Origin: Candidatus Poribacteria bacterium
Lineage (GTDB): Bacteria > Poribacteria > WGA-4E > PCPOR2b
Direction of reading: 5' to 3'
NCBI GenBank assembly: GCA_965205075.1
Contig: OZ242036.1
Location: 1,897,318-1,961,317 of the forward strand
DNA length: 64,000 nucleotides
Position numbers and translations under genes: made by a program. Of this stretch, positions 30,831 through 46,797 are shown piece by piece. Below the pieces are notes generated by a model. The model was given only the letters and a program-made list of their open reading frames with translations. It made no database searches and was not told where the DNA came from. Position 1 is the first letter of the stretch. Every line of letters starts with the position of its first letter.

Positions 30831-31616
30831 ATGAACGCAACAGCACCAATTCTTGAAATTAGCGATCTCACTAAGCGTTTTGGCGGGGTGACGGCTGTGT
30901 CAGACATTGAGATATCTGTGCAAGAAGGGCAGATTGCCAGCCTCATTGGTCCGAACGGCGCAGGCAAAACGACACTTTTTAACTGTGTCACAGGACTGGA
31001 ACCTCCCTCCGAAGGGAGCGTCAAGTTTCAAGATCAAAACATCGTTGGTCTGCGTCCGGATCAGATTGCGGAGGTTGGAATGGCACGGACATTCCAAAAC
31101 ATTCGCCTATTTTCGCAGCTGACAGTCTTGGATAATGTGAAAATAGGCAGGCATTGCCGGTCAAAAAGCCGCCTCTGGAACTCAATCAGCCGTAACCAAA
31201 AACAGCGTCAAGAAGAATCGCACATCACGTCGCATGCGTTTCAACAGCTCAGCTTCGTTGGGCTGGATGGATTTAGGGATCAACTCGCAGGCAATCTTTC
31301 TTATGGCGACCAGCGGCGGGTTGAGATTGCCAGGGCGTTAGCTATGGGTCCAACGCTGCTGCTCTTAGACGAACCCGCGGCGGGTATGAACCCGCAGGAA
31401 ACGCAACAGTTGATAGAGCTGATCCATTCAATCCGTGAACAAGGCATCACGATTTTACTAATCGAACACGACATGAAATTGGTCATGCAGATTTCAGACT
31501 GGGTCACTGTAATCGCTCAGGGGGAAAAGATTAGTGCAGGCAAACCTGAATCAGTTCAAAACGATGAGCGTGTAATCAAAGCTTACCTTGGGGAATCCTA
31601 CGATGCTCAAACTTAA
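30831..31616 (+). CDS. livG: Branched-chain amino-acid ABC transporter ATP-binding protein (LivG-like)
   Basis: Walker A GPNGAGKTT, signature LSYGDQRRVEIARAL, Walker B LLLLDEPAAG. Confidence 0.8.
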   Translation: MNATAPILEISDLTKRFGGVTAVSDIEISVQEGQIASLIGPNGAGKTTLFNCVTGLEPPSEGSVKFQDQNIVGLRPDQIAEVGMARTFQNIRLFSQLTVLDNVKIGRHCRSKSRLWNSISRNQKQRQEESHITSHAFQQLSFVGLDGFRDQLAGNLSYGDQRRVEIARALAMGPTLLLLDEPAAGMNPQETQQLIELIHSIREQGITILLIEHDMKLVMQISDWVTVIAQGEKISAGKPESVQNDERVIKAYLGESYDAQT

Positions 31617-32307
31617 CGAGATTCACACCTACTATGGCAATATTCGCGCTATCCGGGGTGTCTCCCTGTACGTTGAAGAAGGGGAAATGGTCTGTCTGAT
31701 TGGAGCCAATGGGGCGGGCAAATCAACGACCTTGATGACGATATCGGGCATCCATCGTCCCGCGCAAGGGACAATTACCTTCGAGGGGGAAGAGTTAACC
31801 GAAACCTCAGCAGAAAAGCGTGTTGAATTAGGAATTTCGCAAGTCCCTGAAGGAAGGCTAATCTTTCCTGAAATGACAGTGTTAGAAAATCTTGAACTTG
31901 GAGCATTCCTGCGCAAGGATACCCCCGTCATCAGAGAAGATCTTGATCGCGTTTTTGATCTTTTTCCGGTTTTGCGTGAGCGAAGAGGCCAGCAGGGCGG
32001 CACATTGAGTGGTGGTGAACAGCAAATGCTGGCTATTGGTCGTGCGCTTATGTCACATCCCCGTCTCCTGCTGCTCGATGAGCCTTCGCTTGGACTTGCA
32101 CCGCTTCTGGTTGAGCAGATTTTTGAGATAATCCAAGAAATAAATAACCAAGGAACTACTATTCTTCTGGTTGAGCAGAACGCGTATCTCGCCTTGCAGA
32201 CTACCCACCGTGGCTACGTTATGGAGACAGGGGAGATAGCTATCGAAGGCACATCAGCGGAACTTCTGAACGATACACGAGTACGGGAGGCGTATCTGGG
32301 GGAATAG
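31603..32307 (+). CDS. livF: Branched-chain amino-acid ABC transporter ATP-binding protein (LivF-like)
   Basis: Walker A GANGAGKST, signature LSGGEQQMLAIGRAL, Walker B LLLLDEPSLG. Overlaps the livG end. Confidence 0.8.
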   Translation: MLKLNEIHTYYGNIRAIRGVSLYVEEGEMVCLIGANGAGKSTTLMTISGIHRPAQGTITFEGEELTETSAEKRVELGISQVPEGRLIFPEMTVLENLELGAFLRKDTPVIREDLDRVFDLFPVLRERRGQQGGTLSGGEQQMLAIGRALMSHPRLLLLDEPSLGLAPLLVEQIFEIIQEINNQGTTILLVEQNAYLALQTTHRGYVMETGEIAIEGTSAELLNDTRVREAYLGE

Positions 32308-38164: not shown

Positions 38165-38995
38165 ATGATGTACCGAAAGTTTTTGGGCATCTTTGCCCTT
38201 ATCACAACCATCAGCATTTTAGCGGGGTGTGCACCAAAGCCGCAGATTGAAGTCTATATGGAACCTGTTGCGGGTAGAGAACACGCCCAAATCGATGCAG
38301 AAACAGGTTCGATCTCTGTCGAGCGGCGCGACGTTGAGATTACGCTTGAACCACTCGATGAAGTGGACCTGTTTGAACTAACGGAAGATCCAGGGATTAA
38401 TCCGTATCTTGGGATTGATCGTTGGGGTAATGTCGAACCGCTGTATACAGTTTTTGGTATCCACATCGAAAACAAATCCAATTCGCGAGTCATCATTGAT
38501 CCGACAGCAATTTTAGTCGATCTAAACGGTGAGCAGTATGCTGCCCTCCCCTACGATTACTTCAAAGAACTTTATGAGAACCTGAAACCACGAACAGTGG
38601 CGTTCTATGACCCTGGATATCGATACCGTTATCGTTACCCACGTTCTTACTATCGTAGCCCTTACCGACCTTACTACCACCACCCCTACAACTATCGCTT
38701 GGGATACCGGTATGGCCACCGCTACCCTTATTCACCGTATAGGGTGTACGATTACTATCCGGATCCGGCTGCTGCGAATCACGAACGGATGGTTGCGCGA
38801 GAGACGGTGTTCGATGGTGGTCAGCTTTTCTCAGGGGCACAACGTGACGGACTTTTAGTGTTTGAGAGACTGGACATCGGTACGACAGATATAAAGGTTA
38901 TCTTGCCGGAAGTTCAGATTATCAATAAAAGGAAAAAACGTTCAAAATCGGACTTCGTGTTTGATTTTCGGCAAGTTGTCAATGTAAAAGAATGA
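38165..38995 (+). CDS. Lipoprotein with a Tyr/Arg/Pro-rich low-complexity segment
   Basis: Lipobox ISILAGC. Central ~60-aa stretch YDPGYRYRYRYPRSYYRSPYRPYYHHPYNYRLGYRYGHRYPYSPYRVYDYYP. RBS AAGGAG upstream. Confidence 0.65.
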   Translation: MMYRKFLGIFALITTISILAGCAPKPQIEVYMEPVAGREHAQIDAETGSISVERRDVEITLEPLDEVDLFELTEDPGINPYLGIDRWGNVEPLYTVFGIHIENKSNSRVIIDPTAILVDLNGEQYAALPYDYFKELYENLKPRTVAFYDPGYRYRYRYPRSYYRSPYRPYYHHPYNYRLGYRYGHRYPYSPYRVYDYYPDPAAANHERMVARETVFDGGQLFSGAQRDGLLVFERLDIGTTDIKVILPEVQIINKRKKRSKSDFVFDFRQVVNVKE

Positions 38996-39078
38996 AACCT
39001 TTGACAAGGTTAGACGGAATCACTTAGATTGTCAGCAATGAAAAGTTGATTTCGATTTCGTTGCTGGCAATTTTTTGC
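38942..39078 (+). repeat. Copy 1 of a ~125-bp direct repeat (lipoprotein 3' codons + promoter + hairpin/T-tract leader) upstream of livK
   Basis: About 85% identical to 42303-42428. Contains TTGACA(39001)-17 nt-TTAGAT, hairpin CAGCAA...TTGCTG and TTTTTT. Carries a 13-nt internal tandem duplication (GATTTCGATTTCG) relative to copy 2. Confidence 0.8.
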
Positions 39079-39107
39079 CTGAAGATGAATCAATCAAGGA
39101 GACACAT

Positions 39108-40280
39108 ATGAAGAAAAACAGAGCGCGTTCAACCGTTTTGCTCGTCATCTATGCCATGGCATTCGTTATGATTATGGGTTTTGCACTCACCGGCTGTGAA
39201 GCTAAGAATGAGATTAAAGTCGCTGTTGCGGGTCCCTTTACCGGTTCTATTGCTGCTTTCGGGGAGATGATTAAGCGTGGTGCGGAACTCAAGGCGAAAG
39301 AGATTAATGCGGCAGGCGGTGTTAACGGCAAAACACTAACGCTTATCTTTGAGGACGATGCCGGCAAAGATAAAGAAGCGAGTTTAGTTGCAGAGCGAAT
39401 CGCTAGTAATCGGCAAATTCTTGCAGTCGTTGGACACTTTAATAGTTCCTGCTCGTTAGCGGGTAAACCCATCTATCAACGTGCTGGTATTGTTGAACTC
39501 TCGCCTGGTTCAACCAACGTCCGTGTTGCTGCGGGAAGCGAGTGGACATTTAGAAATATCTACCGTGACGATTTTCAAGCTGCATTTGCAGCGAAGTATA
39601 TCAAAAACGTATTAGGGGACATCCAAAAAGTTGCAGTCTTCTTTGATAACGATGACTATGGACGCGGCCTTAAAGACAGCTTCACTGCTGAGGCCAAAGA
39701 ACTTGGACTGGAAATCGTTGGGATGGAAGCGTATGATCGGGATAACACGGACTTTAAAGCACAATTGACAAGCATTAAAGCGAAGCAACCGCATCTGATT
39801 TTTCTCTCAGGGTTGTACAGTCAAGCCGGTTTAATCGTTGCGCAAGCCCGTGAGGCCGGTATCACTGCGCAATTCTTTGGTGCGGATGGTGTTGATTCCC
39901 CGGATTTCCTTCAAATAGCAGGCAACGCGGCCGAAGGTACGTACGTCACAACACCATTTGTCTTTAGAATCGACGACCTCAAAGCTCAAAAAATGGCAAC
40001 AGCATTTGAGGAAATGCATGGGATTGCCCCCGACACTTGGGCGGCACTAACCTATGATGCGGTCGGCATGATTATCGAAGCAATCGAAAAAAGCGGTGAA
40101 AATCGAAAAGCCATTCGCGATCATTTAGCGTCAATTAACAGTCCTGAAAAAGGATATGACGGTATCACAGGCTTAACCTATTTTGATGAAAATGGGGATT
40201 GCACCAAGCCAGCTTACGTTAAAATTGTCAAAGATGGTCAGTTCGTCCCCGCTACGGAGCAGATGCTTGGTATGGAGTAA
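39108..40280 (+). CDS. livK: Branched-chain amino-acid ABC transporter substrate-binding protein (LivK/LivJ-like)
   Basis: Signal/lipoprotein-like N-terminus (FALTGC). Type-I periplasmic-binding fold typical of Leu/Ile/Val-binding proteins. RBS AAGGAGA before the ATG at 39108. Confidence 0.75.
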   Translation: MKKNRARSTVLLVIYAMAFVMIMGFALTGCEAKNEIKVAVAGPFTGSIAAFGEMIKRGAELKAKEINAAGGVNGKTLTLIFEDDAGKDKEASLVAERIASNRQILAVVGHFNSSCSLAGKPIYQRAGIVELSPGSTNVRVAAGSEWTFRNIYRDDFQAAFAAKYIKNVLGDIQKVAVFFDNDDYGRGLKDSFTAEAKELGLEIVGMEAYDRDNTDFKAQLTSIKAKQPHLIFLSGLYSQAGLIVAQAREAGITAQFFGADGVDSPDFLQIAGNAAEGTYVTTPFVFRIDDLKAQKMATAFEEMHGIAPDTWAALTYDAVGMIIEAIEKSGENRKAIRDHLASINSPEKGYDGITGLTYFDENGDCTKPAYVKIVKDGQFVPATEQMLGME

Positions 40281-40394
40281 CGTGCAAGGCAGAGTCTCAC
40301 GTAGCTGCTGTGCAAACTGTTACTGTGTTTCGCGTGCTCGCCTATTGCCATTTTACATTTCACACATAACGTCGTAGGAGCTTTTGATTTTTGT

Positions 40395-41288
40395 ATGGCT
40401 CAATTTCTGGAACAAATTATTAACGGCCTCGTCCTTGGCGGTATCTACGCCCTAATTGCCGTGGGTTACACGATGGTCTACGGCATTATCCAGCTCATCA
40501 ACTTTGCGCACGGCGAGATTTTTATGTTTGGTGCGTATTTTGCCTTCGTATGTGTCACAACCTTCGGTCTTTCATTTTGGGTTGCATTACCACTCAGCAT
40601 GGCTATGTGTGCGGTGATGGGAATGTTGATTGACTTCGTCGCTTACCGCCCCCTCCGTAACGCACCACGTCTCTCCGCACTGATTACCGCCATTGGTATG
40701 TCTTTGGTGCTACAAAATCTTGCGCGGTTAATCTGGGGGGCAAGATGGCAGACATATCCCAAAGAAGTAGAACCTCAGCTCTTGACGGGAAATGCTATCC
40801 CTTTACCCGGTGGCGCACAAGTTTCATTCTTGGATGTCTTTATTATCTTGCTCGCCGTTGGCTTGATGATTGGCTTAAACCGGTTAATTCACTTAACGAA
40901 AATTGGAAAAGCGATGCGGGCTTGCGCTCAAAACAGAACTGCAGCCAGCTTAATGGGCATTGATACCAATCGCGTAATCACAGTAACCTTTGCGATTGGA
41001 TCCGCGCTGGGAGCTGTTGCTGGTGTCATGGTTGGGCTGCGTGAAGTCACAGAGCCGGCGATGGGATACTACAAAGGGGTCGCAGCATTTGCCGCCGCTG
41101 TGCTTGGAGGGATTGGTAACATCACCGGCGCAATGCTTGGCGGTGTGGTCCTCGGTGTTGCTGAAGCCCTCGGTGCTGGCTACATCTCCTCCGAGTATCG
41201 CTTGGCTATTGCTTATATCATTATGATTCTCGTTATTATCTTTCGACCATCTGGGCTACTAGGAAAATCAACAGCAACACGGGCTTAA
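40395..41288 (+). CDS. livH: Branched-chain amino-acid ABC transporter permease (LivH-like)
   Basis: Polytopic membrane protein of the LivH/BPD_transp_2 type. Follows livK. Confidence 0.75.
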   Translation: MAQFLEQIINGLVLGGIYALIAVGYTMVYGIIQLINFAHGEIFMFGAYFAFVCVTTFGLSFWVALPLSMAMCAVMGMLIDFVAYRPLRNAPRLSALITAIGMSLVLQNLARLIWGARWQTYPKEVEPQLLTGNAIPLPGGAQVSFLDVFIILLAVGLMIGLNRLIHLTKIGKAMRACAQNRTAASLMGIDTNRVITVTFAIGSALGAVAGVMVGLREVTEPAMGYYKGVAAFAAAVLGGIGNITGAMLGGVVLGVAEALGAGYISSEYRLAIAYIIMILVIIFRPSGLLGKSTATRA

Positions 41289-41302
41289 TCCAAGAAACCA
41301 AC

Positions 41303-42289
41303 ATGCTGAGAAAACTGTTTACCCCCAAAACCATTATCCTCCTCGTGGCGGTGTGTCTATTTCCGCTGGTAACCTACGGCTCTGACCGCATTGTTGATCT
41401 GTTATATGAACGCGGCCTCGTCTTACCGCTACCAAGTGGCGACTACATCCTCCGAGTCGTTGTACAAGCTTGTCTTTACATGCTGCTAGCTTTAGGACTC
41501 AACATCGTGCCGGGATTCACAGGATTGCTTGACTTGGGATATGTCGGATTTTACCTTGTCGGTGGGTATACGGCAGGGTTGTTGATGGCGAGGCTCGGTT
41601 GGAGTTACTGGATTGCGCTGCCACTTGCTGCAATTCATGGCGCACTCTGGGGTCTATTACGCGGTGCGCCCACCTTGCGTCTGACAGGAGATTATTTTGC
41701 CATCGTAACCTTTGGGTTCTCGGAACTCCTCTTCAGAATTGTGAAAAATGAGGAGTGGCTCATCGGTGGTCCCAACGGATTTGTCAATGATATTCCACCC
41801 CCTAACCTTTTTGGACTTGAACTCTACAAATACTGGCAACAGTATTACCATATCCTGATCTTGTTGGGGCTTACAGTTATCGTTGTGTATCGTCTGCAGA
41901 ATTCGCGCGTTGGGCGAGCGTGGGCAGCGATCCGAGAGGACGAACGCGCAGCAGAGAGCATGGGGATTAACCTCCGTGAATACAAATCCCTTGCTTTTGC
42001 TGTGAGCGCGGCAATCGGAGCCGTTGGCGGTGCATTCTTCGCACAATTTCAGGTCAATATCAGTGCCGGCGCGTTTGAATTCTGGGAATCTATTTTCATC
42101 CTATGTATGGTCGTGCTTGGTGGAATGGGAACCATCAAGGGGTCAGTTATTGGGGCAGGTATCCTAGGCATTTTAGGAGAACTCCTACGGGAATTCGGTG
42201 GATGGCGTTATCTGATCTTCGGGATCATTCTCATCCTTCTGATGCGTTTTCGTCCAGCTGGATTACTATCCATGAGGGAGCAAGACTAA
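41303..42289 (+). CDS. livM: Branched-chain amino-acid ABC transporter permease (LivM-like)
   Basis: Polytopic. GDYFAIVTFGFSELL matches a LivM conserved region. Confidence 0.75.
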   Translation: MLRKLFTPKTIILLVAVCLFPLVTYGSDRIVDLLYERGLVLPLPSGDYILRVVVQACLYMLLALGLNIVPGFTGLLDLGYVGFYLVGGYTAGLLMARLGWSYWIALPLAAIHGALWGLLRGAPTLRLTGDYFAIVTFGFSELLFRIVKNEEWLIGGPNGFVNDIPPPNLFGLELYKYWQQYYHILILLGLTVIVVYRLQNSRVGRAWAAIREDERAAESMGINLREYKSLAFAVSAAIGAVGGAFFAQFQVNISAGAFEFWESIFILCMVVLGGMGTIKGSVIGAGILGILGELLREFGGWRYLIFGIILILLMRFRPAGLLSMREQD

Positions 42290-42302
42290 CCTCAGCAAGC
42301 GG

Positions 42303-42428
42303 TCAAGATCCGATTTCGTTTTTGATTTTCGGCAAGTTATGAACGTAACAGAATGAGACCCTTGACAAGATTAGACGGAATCACCTAGATTGCCAGTAAT
42401 GAAACTTCGTTGCTGGCATTTTTTTTAT
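42303..42428 (+). repeat. Copy 2 of the ~125-bp direct repeat, upstream of the Na+:alanine symporter gene
   Basis: Encodes SRSDFVFDFRQVMNVTE* (compare the lipoprotein C-terminus SKSDFVFDFRQVVNVKE*). Then TTGACA(42362)-17 nt-CTAGAT, hairpin CCAGTAA...TTGCTGG and TTTTTTTT. Confidence 0.8.
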
Positions 42429-42464: not shown

Positions 42465-44084
42465 ATGCAGCAAAAAGCACCGTGGTTTTATAATAAGGCA
42501 GGAGTGGCTACCCTACTCCTAGCGTTATTGACGATTCTATATATGGTATCTGCTTGGGCACAGGAAAGCGGAGAACCTTCTGCCTTCTACAAAGCTAACG
42601 CGACAATTGGCGCGGTCCTCTTTTTTGACATCGCCTTTGGTTCTATTCAGACTGATGAGGTCGACCGAGATGGAAATCCGGTGCTGGACGCATTCGGCAA
42701 TCCCCAGAAAAAGGTTGTTAGTCTTCCTTTTCTTATTATTGTGCTAATCCTCGGTGCAATCTTTTTTACCTTCTGGTATCGCTGGATCAACGTACGGGGA
42801 TTGAAGCACTCCCTCAACGTCATCCAAGGGAAGTATGATAACCCAGAGGATACCGGGGAAATCTCCCATTTCCGTGCTCTGACAAGCGCGTTGTCTGCAA
42901 CGGTTGGTCTCGGCAACATTGCAGGCGTCGCGATTGCTATTCAGTTAGGCGGTCCGGGCGCTGTTTTTTGGATGCTTATCGCAGCGGTATTCGGGATGAC
43001 TGCAAAGTTCAGTAGTTGTACCTTATCCCAACTGTATCGGCAGACAAATGCAGATGGTAGCATCTCCGGCGGTCCCATGTACTACGTTGATATCGGATTG
43101 AAACAGATGGGAGGCAGTTGGGCACCTTTGGGGAAAGTGCTAGCAATCATGTATGCACTGATGGTCATGGGAGGTTCCATCGGTGTCGGCAATATGTTTC
43201 AGGTAAATCAGACAGCCGAGGCGTTTCGGAGTACTTTCGGACTTTCAGCAGGCGCGAACTGGATTATCGGTATTGTAATAGCAATTTTGGTGGGGGCAGT
43301 GATTATCGGTGGAATTAAACGAATTGGCGCAGCAACCTCTAAAATTGTACCTGCTATGTGTGGTTTATATGTATGTGTTTCGATTCTAATAATTTTGATG
43401 AACTTTACCAAAATCCCTGAAGCCATCGGTCTTATCTTTAGCATGGCTTTCACAGGTAATGCTTTCTACGGTGGATTTTTTGGCGTACTGGTCTGGGGTA
43501 TCAAACGCGCATCTTTTTCAAATGAGGCGGGGATCGGCAGTGCTGCTATTGCTCACGCAGCAGCAAAGACAGAAGAACCTGTTCGAGAAGGTATCGTGGC
43601 GATGGTTGGTCCCTTCATTGATACTATCATCGTATGTTTGATGACGGCGATGGTAGTCATCATTACGGGCGCATGGAATGATCCCAGCCTATCGCAGTCT
43701 GATGGCGTTACGCTAACGACAAAAGCGTTTGAAAGTGCCATAGGTTGGTTCCCGTTGATCCTTACCGTCAGTATCGGGCTGTTTGCCTATTCCACGATGA
43801 TTTCTTGGGCTTACTACGGCGAACGGGGTTGGATCTACCTGCTCGACCATTTCGGTGGCACCGGACTAAAAACTGTTATCGTCTTCAGAATTATTTTTAT
43901 CCTTTTTGTTATCGTTGGTGCAGTCAATAAATTGGATGCTGTCTTAGACTTTTCGGATGCGATGGTTCTCGGTATGGCTTTTCCGAATATCATTGGAAGT
44001 ATTATCCTCGCACCGCGAGTCCTGAAACAAGTCAGGGACTATTGGAACCGTTACCAATCAGGCGAAATGGAAATAGTTCAATAA
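42465..44084 (+). CDS. Alanine/glycine:cation symporter (AGCS family)
   Basis: Polytopic transporter with …LSATVGLGNIAGVAIAIQLGGPGAVFWM… characteristic of AGCS. RBS AAGGAG before the ATG at 42465. Confidence 0.75.
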   Translation: MQQKAPWFYNKAGVATLLLALLTILYMVSAWAQESGEPSAFYKANATIGAVLFFDIAFGSIQTDEVDRDGNPVLDAFGNPQKKVVSLPFLIIVLILGAIFFTFWYRWINVRGLKHSLNVIQGKYDNPEDTGEISHFRALTSALSATVGLGNIAGVAIAIQLGGPGAVFWMLIAAVFGMTAKFSSCTLSQLYRQTNADGSISGGPMYYVDIGLKQMGGSWAPLGKVLAIMYALMVMGGSIGVGNMFQVNQTAEAFRSTFGLSAGANWIIGIVIAILVGAVIIGGIKRIGAATSKIVPAMCGLYVCVSILIILMNFTKIPEAIGLIFSMAFTGNAFYGGFFGVLVWGIKRASFSNEAGIGSAAIAHAAAKTEEPVREGIVAMVGPFIDTIIVCLMTAMVVIITGAWNDPSLSQSDGVTLTTKAFESAIGWFPLILTVSIGLFAYSTMISWAYYGERGWIYLLDHFGGTGLKTVIVFRIIFILFVIVGAVNKLDAVLDFSDAMVLGMAFPNIIGSIILAPRVLKQVRDYWNRYQSGEMEIVQ

Positions 44085-45298: not shown

Positions 45299-45540
45299 CT
45301 TAATCTCCTCTTTGTGAATCATAGTGTTGGCAACAGCATAAAACAATCTGTGAGCCAAGTCAACCCTTTTTCTGTACCCCTGTGCTAACCCGCGCCGGAA
45401 GCCCCATCCTGAGACAACGCAAACCGAACTTTCCCATTGACACCGATCTGATAATTTGTATAATCATGCCCACACGGTCCAAGGGATTGACTTCAGAGAG
45501 GTTCGTCAGGAGGCACAATCGAGCACAAGGAGAGAAATGG

Positions 45541-46797
45541 ATGCGTTATCCAACCGAACGACAGATAGAAGAAAGAACAGATCACAGCTTTGATGCCAAT
45601 GTTTATACCCGCCTAGGTGTCAAACCATTCATCAACGCCAACCTCCCTTTTACGTTTTTGAGTGCAACGGTGGTGTGGCCAGAAGTGCGCCGGGCAATTG
45701 ATGAAGCAGCCCACTATATGGTTGATGTTGTCGAACTACAACGGGGGGTAGGCAGGCGTCTTGCGGAGATTTCGGGGGCAGAGTCCGGCATGGTCTCCTC
45801 CGGTGCCGCTGGATCCATGGCACTAGCAACAGCAGCGTGCATCGCGGGCACCGATCCAGAGAAGATTTGGCAGTTACCTGACACCGCTGGTCTCAAGGAT
45901 CAGGTTATCATGTGGGGTGGGCGTAGTATCTTCGACAGCGCGTTGCGACTGGTAGGAGGAAAACCGGTGGTGGTTAGGTCGCTGGACGGCTTGCGTCACT
46001 CGATTAACGATGAGACCGCCATGCTTTGCACTGGATATTCGGCAGATCCAGATCCGGTTGATCCACCACCCCTAGCAGAGATGGTGGAGATTTGTAAGTC
46101 CGCGGGTATACCCATATTTGTGGATGCAGCGGGCGGCATACCACCCATTGACAATATCCGTCGGTATGCGCGCATGGGCGTAGACCTGTATGGCTTTAGT
46201 GGAGGCAAGGGACTACGAGGACCGCAAGCTAGTGGCCTGTTGCTTGGGCGGCGTGATCTGATTGAAGCGGCTCTTGCTAACGCTACGCCTGTGGAGGGGG
46301 CGGTGTGTAGGGCAATGAAGGTCGGAAAGGAAGAGATTATCGGTTGTATGGCAGCTCTTGAAAAGTGGCTGACCATCGACCTTGCTGCGTTGTATCGTGA
46401 ACAGACGGAAACGCTTCAGAGAATCGCAGGATTCGTAAAATCTGTACCCGGTGTTGATACTAAAATTGAGCTCCGCAACGGTAGTAATCGCTTCATGCAA
46501 TTAGTTCTGAATTGGGATGAAGAGATTTTGGGACTTTCTGCAGATGAGTGTGGACGCGAGTTGCGCGAAGGGGATCCCCCTATATCGGTGCTGTGTAATT
46601 ATAATCCTTACGTGACGAGGGTTCGCGAATTCTTTCCGCCGGCTCCTCCTGATGGCAAATCGGTCAAGCGTCAGAGTAGCCCGCTGACTGTGTTCTCTCT
46701 CAGTCTTCAACCCGGCGAAGAACAGATTGTTGGAACTCGGCTGCGCGATATATTGATGGCGGCACTTAATAGGACTTCATTGCCTTCAAATAAGTGA
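45541..46797 (+). CDS. SelA/DgaE-like fold-type-I PLP-dependent enzyme
   Basis: FSGGKGLRGPQASGLL matches the SelA/DgaE PLP-lysine motif (SG-D/G-K-L-L-GGPQAG). RBS AAGGAGA before the ATG at 45541. Confidence 0.55.
   Translation: MRYPTERQIEERTDHSFDANVYTRLGVKPFINANLPFTFLSATVVWPEVRRAIDEAAHYMVDVVELQRGVGRRLAEISGAESGMVSSGAAGSMALATAACIAGTDPEKIWQLPDTAGLKDQVIMWGGRSIFDSALRLVGGKPVVVRSLDGLRHSINDETAMLCTGYSADPDPVDPPPLAEMVEICKSAGIPIFVDAAGGIPPIDNIRRYARMGVDLYGFSGGKGLRGPQASGLLLGRRDLIEAALANATPVEGAVCRAMKVGKEEIIGCMAALEKWLTIDLAALYREQTETLQRIAGFVKSVPGVDTKIELRNGSNRFMQLVLNWDEEILGLSADECGRELREGDPPISVLCNYNPYVTRVREFFPPAPPDGKSVKRQSSPLTVFSLSLQPGEEQIVGTRLRDILMAALNRTSLPSNK

Follow-up and report, generated by a model that had tools for sequence, protein, structure and literature searches.

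A conserved direct repeat with a predicted promoter and terminator precedes two amino-acid transporter systems in Candidatus Poribacteria

Bacterial amino-acid operons such as trp, leu, ilv, and his are regulated by leader-peptide attenuators, and terminator-like leaders were once proposed for livJ and livK of E. coli. Promoters can also be duplicated or captured by segmental duplication, and homology-facilitated illegitimate recombination is known from naturally transformable bacteria. We analyzed a 64,000-nt stretch of a Candidatus Poribacteria genome (assembly GCA_965205075.1, contig OZ242036.1; hereafter the window, to which all coordinates refer unless another locus is named) that carries two direct copies of a short repeat, R1 and R2. 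R1 lies between a lipoprotein gene (lipo) and the transporter genes livK, livH, and livM (livKHM), and R2 between livM and the sodium:alanine symporter gene agcS; orthologous loci fetched from other assemblies are labeled L001-L043. Each copy comprises the 3' end of lipo, a promoter, and a hairpin with a U-tract, a composition already proposed in a preliminary description of the window and upheld here by tblastn, a consensus scan, and folding. Like leader-peptide attenuators, the repeat places a terminator hairpin upstream of amino-acid-related genes; unlike them, it has neither a leader open reading frame (ORF) nor an antiterminator helix, its predicted transcription start lies inside the hairpin, and in evolution the hairpin stays with the gene upstream of it and not with the one that follows. 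It resembles Rho-independent terminators in its stem of 12-14 bp directly followed by 5-8 U, ~35 nt past a stop codon and on the sense strand only, and in its pairing kept via G.U and compensatory changes, but it differs from them in a stem sequence that is almost invariant and in having a promoter between stop codon and stem, so that the stem overlaps the predicted start. We consider it probable that each copy acts as a compact transcription boundary, in which the lipo 3' end is combined with a sigma-70 promoter and a Rho-independent terminator, and that one segmental event gave rise to the two copies.

R1 and R2 are 85% identical, a value that also holds for their ungapped core (38936-39043 versus 42297-42404) and agrees with the identity first reported for them. 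Comparison of R1 with R2 by blastn yields 88% identity over 90 nt (E = 2e-21) and a second block of 20 nt (95%) that spans the 3' arm of the hairpin and the T-tract; a 12-nt indel in the hairpin loop divides the two blocks, and similarity resumes up to 39076 in R1 and 42425 in R2. They form the sole repeat family of at least 40 nt in the window, where no third copy was found. Both copies occupy the same positions in at least eight other Candidatus Poribacteria assemblies (L002, L004/L012, L008, L009, L010, L011, and L043), several of them closed chromosomes, and R1 orthologues are present in L001, L002, L004, L008-L011, and L043. Since independent assemblies, closed chromosomes included, carry both copies at the same positions, mis-assembly is excluded, and of the doubts raised at the outset, an assembly artefact and a lack of conservation in relatives do not hold. 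R1 and R2 are thus a real, conserved duplication of no recent date, built of ordinary parts.

The preliminary description had called for a search for further copies, and a scan of 185,579 species genomes with a 41-nt degenerate pattern had hits in six Poribacteria genomes, all of them at this locus. Metagenome contigs of the Joint Genome Institute (JGI) contained 0 matches to a degenerate 42-nt pattern, and the relatives found in a protein-based metagenome scan were all distant (at most 63% identical), useful for synteny but not for the promoter. These searches bear on the idea that the similarity of the copies is fortuitous or arose in assembly, or that the repeat is dispersed and mobile, akin to repetitive extragenic palindromic (REP) sequences, miniature inverted-repeat transposable elements (MITEs), or attC sites, to which we assign a close to negligible probability. 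The copies do flank a block of variable presence, insertion sequence (IS) elements are active in the locus, and, as with REP sequences, bacterial interspersed mosaic elements (BIMEs), and attC sites, an imperfect intergenic palindrome stands beside blocks of variable gene content. Against this stand the blastn E value and the presence of both copies in independent assemblies; the hairpin pattern has no occurrence elsewhere in the fetched loci, and many copies at unrelated loci were not found, whole genomes having been scanned with the strict pattern only. No integrase or transposase gene lies between R1 and R2, no RAYT or integrase gene accompanies the hairpin, and the boundary of the repeat falls within the lipo coding sequence rather than in the hairpin. 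An identity as integron attC site or REP sequence was rejected for want of both dispersal and a recombinase.

Features of the lipo-agcS region and of the associated ATPase genes, in window coordinates
Feature	Position	Strand	Basis
lipo, gene for a 276-aa lipoprotein	38165-38995	+	ORF list; Cys22 lipobox; no Pfam family
Repeat copy 1 (R1): lipo 3' end, promoter, terminator	38936-39078	+	blastn, repeat search
R1 promoter, sigma-70-type (predicted): -35 TTGACA, 18-nt spacer, -10 TAGATT	39001-39006 (-35); 39025-39030 (-10)	+	Consensus scan
lipo intrinsic terminator (R1; predicted)	39029-39076	+	Folding, pair counts, conservation behind lipo
livK-type periplasmic binding protein gene	39108-40280	+	Pfam Peripla_BP_6, 1e-58
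livH permease gene	40395-41288	+	Pfam BPD_transp_2
livM permease gene	41303-42289	+	Pfam BPD_transp_2
Repeat copy 2 (R2): non-coding lipo 3' relic (42297-42356), promoter, terminator	42297-42428	+	blastn, repeat search
R2 promoter, sigma-70-type (predicted): -35 TTGACA, 18-nt spacer, -10 TAGATT	42362-42367 (-35); 42386-42391 (-10)	+	Consensus scan
livKHM-end intrinsic terminator (R2; predicted)	42391-42426	+	Folding; RNAalifold consensus
agcS-type sodium:alanine symporter gene	42465-44084	+	Pfam Na_Ala_symp, 3e-128
livG and livF ATPase genes, same ATP-binding cassette (ABC) system	30831-32307	+	Pfam ABC_tran and BCA_ABC_TP_C

The left part of R1 is formed by the last ~19 codons of an intact lipo. 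Its counterpart in R2 translates as KRSRSDFVFDFRQVMNVTE followed by a stop codon and matches lipo residues 258-276 (tblastn E = 3.5e-5). Across the lipo family (113 homologues, those named being Candidatus Poribacteria), the C-terminal motif DFxFDFRQV is near-invariant, and the R2 relic carries substitutions at these otherwise invariant residues. Moreover, of seven species three have a damaged relic, frameshifted in L004 and in L011 and shortened by a 24-nt deletion in L010. The relic is a pseudogene fragment and not a leader peptide; judging from the sequence comparisons, the lipo tail in R1 is under protein constraint and the relic in R2 evolves without it. Concerning the lipoprotein itself, an exact-protein look-up of the window sequence returned no record, and its predicted structure (predicted local distance difference test, pLDDT, 73.6) has no match in the PDB below E = 0.001, with only a vague beta-sandwich resemblance and no hint as to function. 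The model consists of a beta-sandwich core and a disordered Tyr/Arg/Pro-rich insert (residues 144-198). Among the closer Poribacteria relatives in the sample, most have lipo directly 5' of an amino-acid transporter gene (agcS or livK), L039 being an exception, and the lipoprotein may be an accessory of uptake.

Between the end of lipo, or its relic, and the hairpin, both copies hold a candidate sigma-70 promoter, for which we chose the reading TTGACA-18-TAGATT over the alternative TTGACA-17-T(T/C)AGAT, available in both copies. Across species, mean pairwise distances are lowest in the hexamers (0.00-0.05 for the -35 and 0.00-0.10 for the -10), compared with 0.16-0.18 in the spacer, 0.14-0.16 in the relic, 0.24-0.31 in the hairpin loop, 0.16-0.18 in the 5' untranslated regions (UTRs), and about 0.2-0.35 at third codon positions. 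The spacer drifts in sequence and is fixed in length, without indels. For R2 in seven species, 0 of the 12 hexamer columns are variable versus 9 of the 23 columns of gap and spacer (Fisher p = 0.015). Read from these alignments, the pattern is what a functional sigma-70 promoter under purifying selection usually leaves, and the near-consensus promoter announced for each copy is therefore substantiated by hexamers that are conserved while the spacer drifts. It was also correctly seen that both copies precede amino-acid uptake genes: Pfam searches confirm the assignments of livK, livH, livM, and the symporter gene, and the livK and agcS systems have one promoter type. Transcription is predicted to start ~7 nt past the -10, at A39037 in R1 and A42398 in R2.

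The third part of the repeat is a stable hairpin directly followed by a U-tract on the transcribed strand, as in intrinsic terminators, with folding energies of -18.6 (R1) and -17.8 (R2) kcal/mol and z scores of -5.2 and -7.6, respectively. In R1, the 5' arm (39031-39042) and the 3' arm (39057-39068) enclose a long loop, a UU/AA extension (39029-30 and 39069-70) prolongs the stem, and six T (39071-39076) follow it; in R2, a 12-bp stem with a 4-nt loop (42391-42418) precedes eight T (42419-42426). Over 22 sequences, 95.6% of the stem cells are paired, including one CG<->UA compensatory pair reached via UG intermediates. Five further stem pairs have one-sided changes, which all give G.U on the + strand and never the A.C type. 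Mismatches restricted to G.U on one strand indicate that selection acts on the + strand RNA. They also weigh heavily on another interpretation of the inverted repeat TTGCCAGCAA/TTGCTGGCAA, namely that it is a DNA operator for a dimeric repressor, overlapping the -10 and +1 of both promoters. Such a position is typical for repressors, the half-site sequence is conserved, and the half-site centres lie ~32 bp (long version) or ~20 bp (short version) apart, near three and two helical turns. Nevertheless, R1 and R2 differ by 12 bp in half-site spacing, outgroups without the promoter have the palindrome as well, and selection on one strand of RNA is not what an operator would leave behind; we rejected the operator on account of the G.U mismatches and hold it to be highly improbable.

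The hairpin, 35 nt past the lipo stop codon, occurs behind lipo in at least 14 lineages irrespective of the downstream gene. In distant relatives devoid of the promoter, the same stem TTGCCAGCAA..TTGCTGGCAA and its Ts follow the lipo stop codon, and the next gene is livK in L013 (lipo 76% identical at the amino-acid level), L037 (68%), and L022 (47%), a different binding-protein gene in L020 (63%), a DNA methyltransferase gene in L039 (59%), and agcS in L015 (59%), in which an IS is inserted in the loop. Because the hairpin accompanies lipo whatever gene comes next, we predict that it is the intrinsic terminator of lipo. The loop is long in every outgroup hairpin, so that the long loop of R1 is ancestral and the short loop of R2 results from a 12-nt deletion; the 13-nt tandem duplication previously seen in the R1 loop is accordingly not a duplication, the extra 12-13 nt being the original state. 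Regarding the IS of L015 (10838-12440, also in L016), it is a DDE_Tnp_1 element located exactly in the loop of the lipo hairpin, whose arms are now 1.6 kb apart, and it is flanked by the duplicated target GCGTTGATTGC.

Given this geometry, the most attractive part of the preliminary description, an amino-acid-responsive attenuator in the 5' leader of livK and agcS at which promoter transcripts terminate or read through according to amino-acid supply, appears very unlikely. The idea draws on the position of the hairpin and U-tract, which follow a conserved promoter and come before the start codons of two amino-acid uptake systems, both preceded by an identical type of module. However, the stem starts only 1 nt past the -10 (39031 in R1, 42392 in R2), and the predicted +1 falls in the middle of the 5' arm and not, as had been thought, ahead of the hairpin. 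RNAs beginning at A39037 and A42398 show no terminator fold (z = -0.9 and 0.0), in contrast to RNAs with the entire 5' arm, which fold the hairpin (z = -2.8 and -4.1). Since the stem begins so close to the -10, RNA born at the promoter, if it starts where predicted, would be deprived of the G+C-rich half of the 5' arm and unable to fold the terminator; on the basis of the predicted start, the promoter's own transcript thus contains no complete terminator. Neither copy has a leader ORF: the R2 relic is without start codon or ribosome-binding context and is broken in L004, L010, and L011. In the RNAalifold consensus, each copy keeps the terminator, and no competing helix is common to R1 and R2, so that the proposed folding and covariance analysis of the leader yields a terminator formed only with the full 5' arm and no shared alternative pairing. 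Rfam has no match at gathering score in the whole window, and in the two intergenic regions searched at E up to 10 only chance-level hits (at most 16 bits) appeared, with no riboswitch, T-box, or leader family among them. That the hairpin follows lipo even where a methyltransferase gene is next (L039) is equally at odds with amino-acid attenuation. One other pairing emerged from the RNAalifold analysis of the R1 orthologues, a 13-bp helix between lipo codons (38962-38975, UUGAUUUUCGRCAA) and the livK 5' UTR (39072-39088, UUGYCUGAAGAUGAA), which would enclose promoter and terminator; it was not adopted, as its covariation is weak and it is weakened in outgroups and absent from R2.

In the boundary that we favor, stop codon of lipo and terminator are 35 nt apart with the promoter placed between them, and the fate of a transcript would depend on where it began. 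Incoming RNA (the lipo mRNA at R1 and the livKHM mRNA at R2) would hold both arms of the hairpin and terminate at the U-tract, whereas RNA born at the promoter would start within the 5' arm, lack the G+C-rich base of the stem, and read on into livK or agcS. Several facts weigh against this explanation. The stem sequence is almost invariant across lineages with saturated synonymous sites, far beyond what pairing needs. The outgroups L013, L037, and L022 keep the hairpin and have no recognizable promoter between lipo and livK, and their livK must be expressed by read-through or from an unrecognized promoter, in which case the hairpin may be leaky and possibly a regulated terminator. In R1, variable columns are not significantly rarer in the hexamers (3 of 12) than in gap and spacer (11 of 23, p = 0.28). 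Finally, the escape from termination would fail if the polymerase started unusually near the -10 or if a lipo-internal promoter supplied most of the transcripts.

The first two of these facts have led us to consider that, within a lipo-transporter co-transcript, the hairpin terminates only in part or under regulation, or else is a site of RNA processing or stability, and that a sequence-specific factor would recognize it, the promoter being a later addition in the clade. The stem stays near-invariant down to 47% amino-acid identity of lipo, unlike the loop and the spacer from stop codon to hairpin; in L017, lipo and agcS are only 18 nt apart and surely co-transcribed; and a terminator-like hairpin of the same locus, in the spacer between agcS and the convergent oxidoreductase gene of the GFO family (gfo), has already been replaced within the clade (in L004), unlike the lipo hairpin. 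On the other hand, no candidate RNA-binding regulator was identified, and in all its features the hairpin matches a plain strong terminator. The sample comprises only ~14 independent lineages, and the conservation of the hairpin could simply mean that a stem changes slowly when both of its arms have to change together. On balance, we regard a regulated hairpin as rather unlikely. The same holds, with comparable reserve, for the more specific and in our opinion unlikely proposal that the stem, UUGCCAGCAA(Y)GA..UCGUUGCUGGCAA, is a phylum-specific cis-regulatory RNA motif read by a sequence-specific factor. Its almost unchanged sequence where lipo is only 47-68% identical and loop and flanks turn over would fit such a motif, which is absent from Rfam. 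If true, a putative antiterminator, nuclease, or stabilizer would set how much transcription passes from lipo into the downstream amino-acid transporter gene.

Among lineages ~12-20% apart in DNA, three gene-content states occur between lipo and gfo. The full state (lipo-R1-livKHM-R2-agcS) is found in the window and eight others; a second state without R2 or agcS (lipo-R1-livKHM) characterizes L001 and the outgroup L013 (lipo-livKHM-gfo); and a third without livKHM (lipo-R-agcS) is represented by L007 and by L040-L042, the latter also without livG and livF. In deeper relatives, lipo is followed by agcS in L015-L019, L023, and L024, and by livK in L013, L020-L022, and L037, from which we conclude that both pairings are old. 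The sequences of R1 and R2 mostly form two separate sets across species, and the junction between livM and the relic is the same in all full-state genomes, which fits one duplication before the radiation of the clade and little gene conversion thereafter. L007 (lipo-agcS) is the nearest relative of the full-state L010 (distance 0.06 in lipo and 0.03 in gfo). The single R copy of L007 is mixed: as far as the promoter spacer, three of its four diagnostic sites agree with R1, and from the hairpin onward it is R2-like. In the alignment, the R copy of L040, judged by eye, follows the same division into left and right. Such a junction would result if R1 and R2 recombined homologously with deletion of livKHM, or if an ancestral lipo-agcS allele donated R2.

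We retain from the preliminary description, which had the livKHM block arise or be inserted by segmental duplication, that a rearrangement involving livKHM took place, the insertion of livKHM being only one of two equally fitting readings. Outgroups, distances, and junctions are ambiguous as to whether livKHM or agcS was the inserted block: the nearest outgroup, L013, is lipo-livKHM-gfo, and the deeper relatives include lipo-agcS. Under the copied-boundary explanation, a single segmental event in the stem lineage of the clade would have copied at least 75 nt of the lipo tail together with promoter and terminator, joining the livKHM and agcS units, otherwise alternatives directly behind lipo, and endowing both with the same promoter. 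The copies would have been separate since then, R1 with its long loop and R2 with the 12-nt loop deletion. The R2 relic would fit a one-sided illegitimate join, as in homology-facilitated illegitimate recombination, in which one side of the junction lies in a homologous flank and the other is joined illegitimately, so that a truncated gene fragment, here the lipo relic, is left beside the cargo; we infer this mechanism from its end products, donor and recipient not being distinguishable among the genomes at hand. As in other segmental promoter duplications, the resulting direct repeats can recombine later.

Our general understanding of promoters, terminators, and duplications is unchanged by this locus, which offers a clean natural example of a transporter gene that would have acquired an existing promoter and terminator, complete with a tell-tale gene fragment. 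The repeats coincide with the gain or loss of whole uptake systems among closely related sponge symbionts that are thought to feed on host-derived amino acids. A literature search on Poribacteria and amino-acid transport added nothing specific, and nothing relevant was found in one on terminators overlapping promoters; if the start site is confirmed, such an overlap could serve as a compact insulator design.

Several smaller observations concern the flux of genes and mobile elements around the repeat. The third-position distance between the window and L004 is 0.12 in agcS versus 0.37 in livK and 0.39 in gfo, and between some lineages (the window versus L004 and L011) the divergence of agcS is only a half to a third of that in the flanking livK, livM, and gfo, which suggests a recent recombinational exchange of the agcS segment among Poribacteria species. 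The ATPase genes livG and livF reside in a separate gene cluster 6 kb upstream of the repeat region, at the same position in L001, L002, L004, and L043; in L040 (1-9000, also in L041), they are missing between the PALP and PhyH genes, and with them the whole LIV system is missing at the locus. An IS5-family element splits agcS in L009 (4708-5514), a frameshifted TnpB (IS605 OrfB) lies between livK and livH in L011 (3888-4998), and a 540-nt non-coding insert occupies the same interval in L002 (12113-12653). A perfect TTGACA-16-TATAAT is found at 45437-45464, within a listed ORF with a GVG start (45382-46797), so that the window has a full sigma-70 consensus site ahead of another gene too; the ORF is that of an aminotransferase-like gene whose orthologues measure 413-418 aa, compared with 471 aa as listed, so that its true start is probably downstream of this predicted promoter. 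Lastly, the palindrome GAAACCGAGTTTT..AAAACTCGGTTTC, unrelated to R1/R2 and absent from the window, is truly dispersed in Poribacteria and looks like a REP-like or bidirectional-terminator-like repeat. It recurs in unrelated intergenic regions of many loci, at L004 16023-16053, L015 12461-12556, L018 12952, L026 5630-5660, L027 3317-3347, L033 1561-1591 and 4646, and L043 3729-3760.

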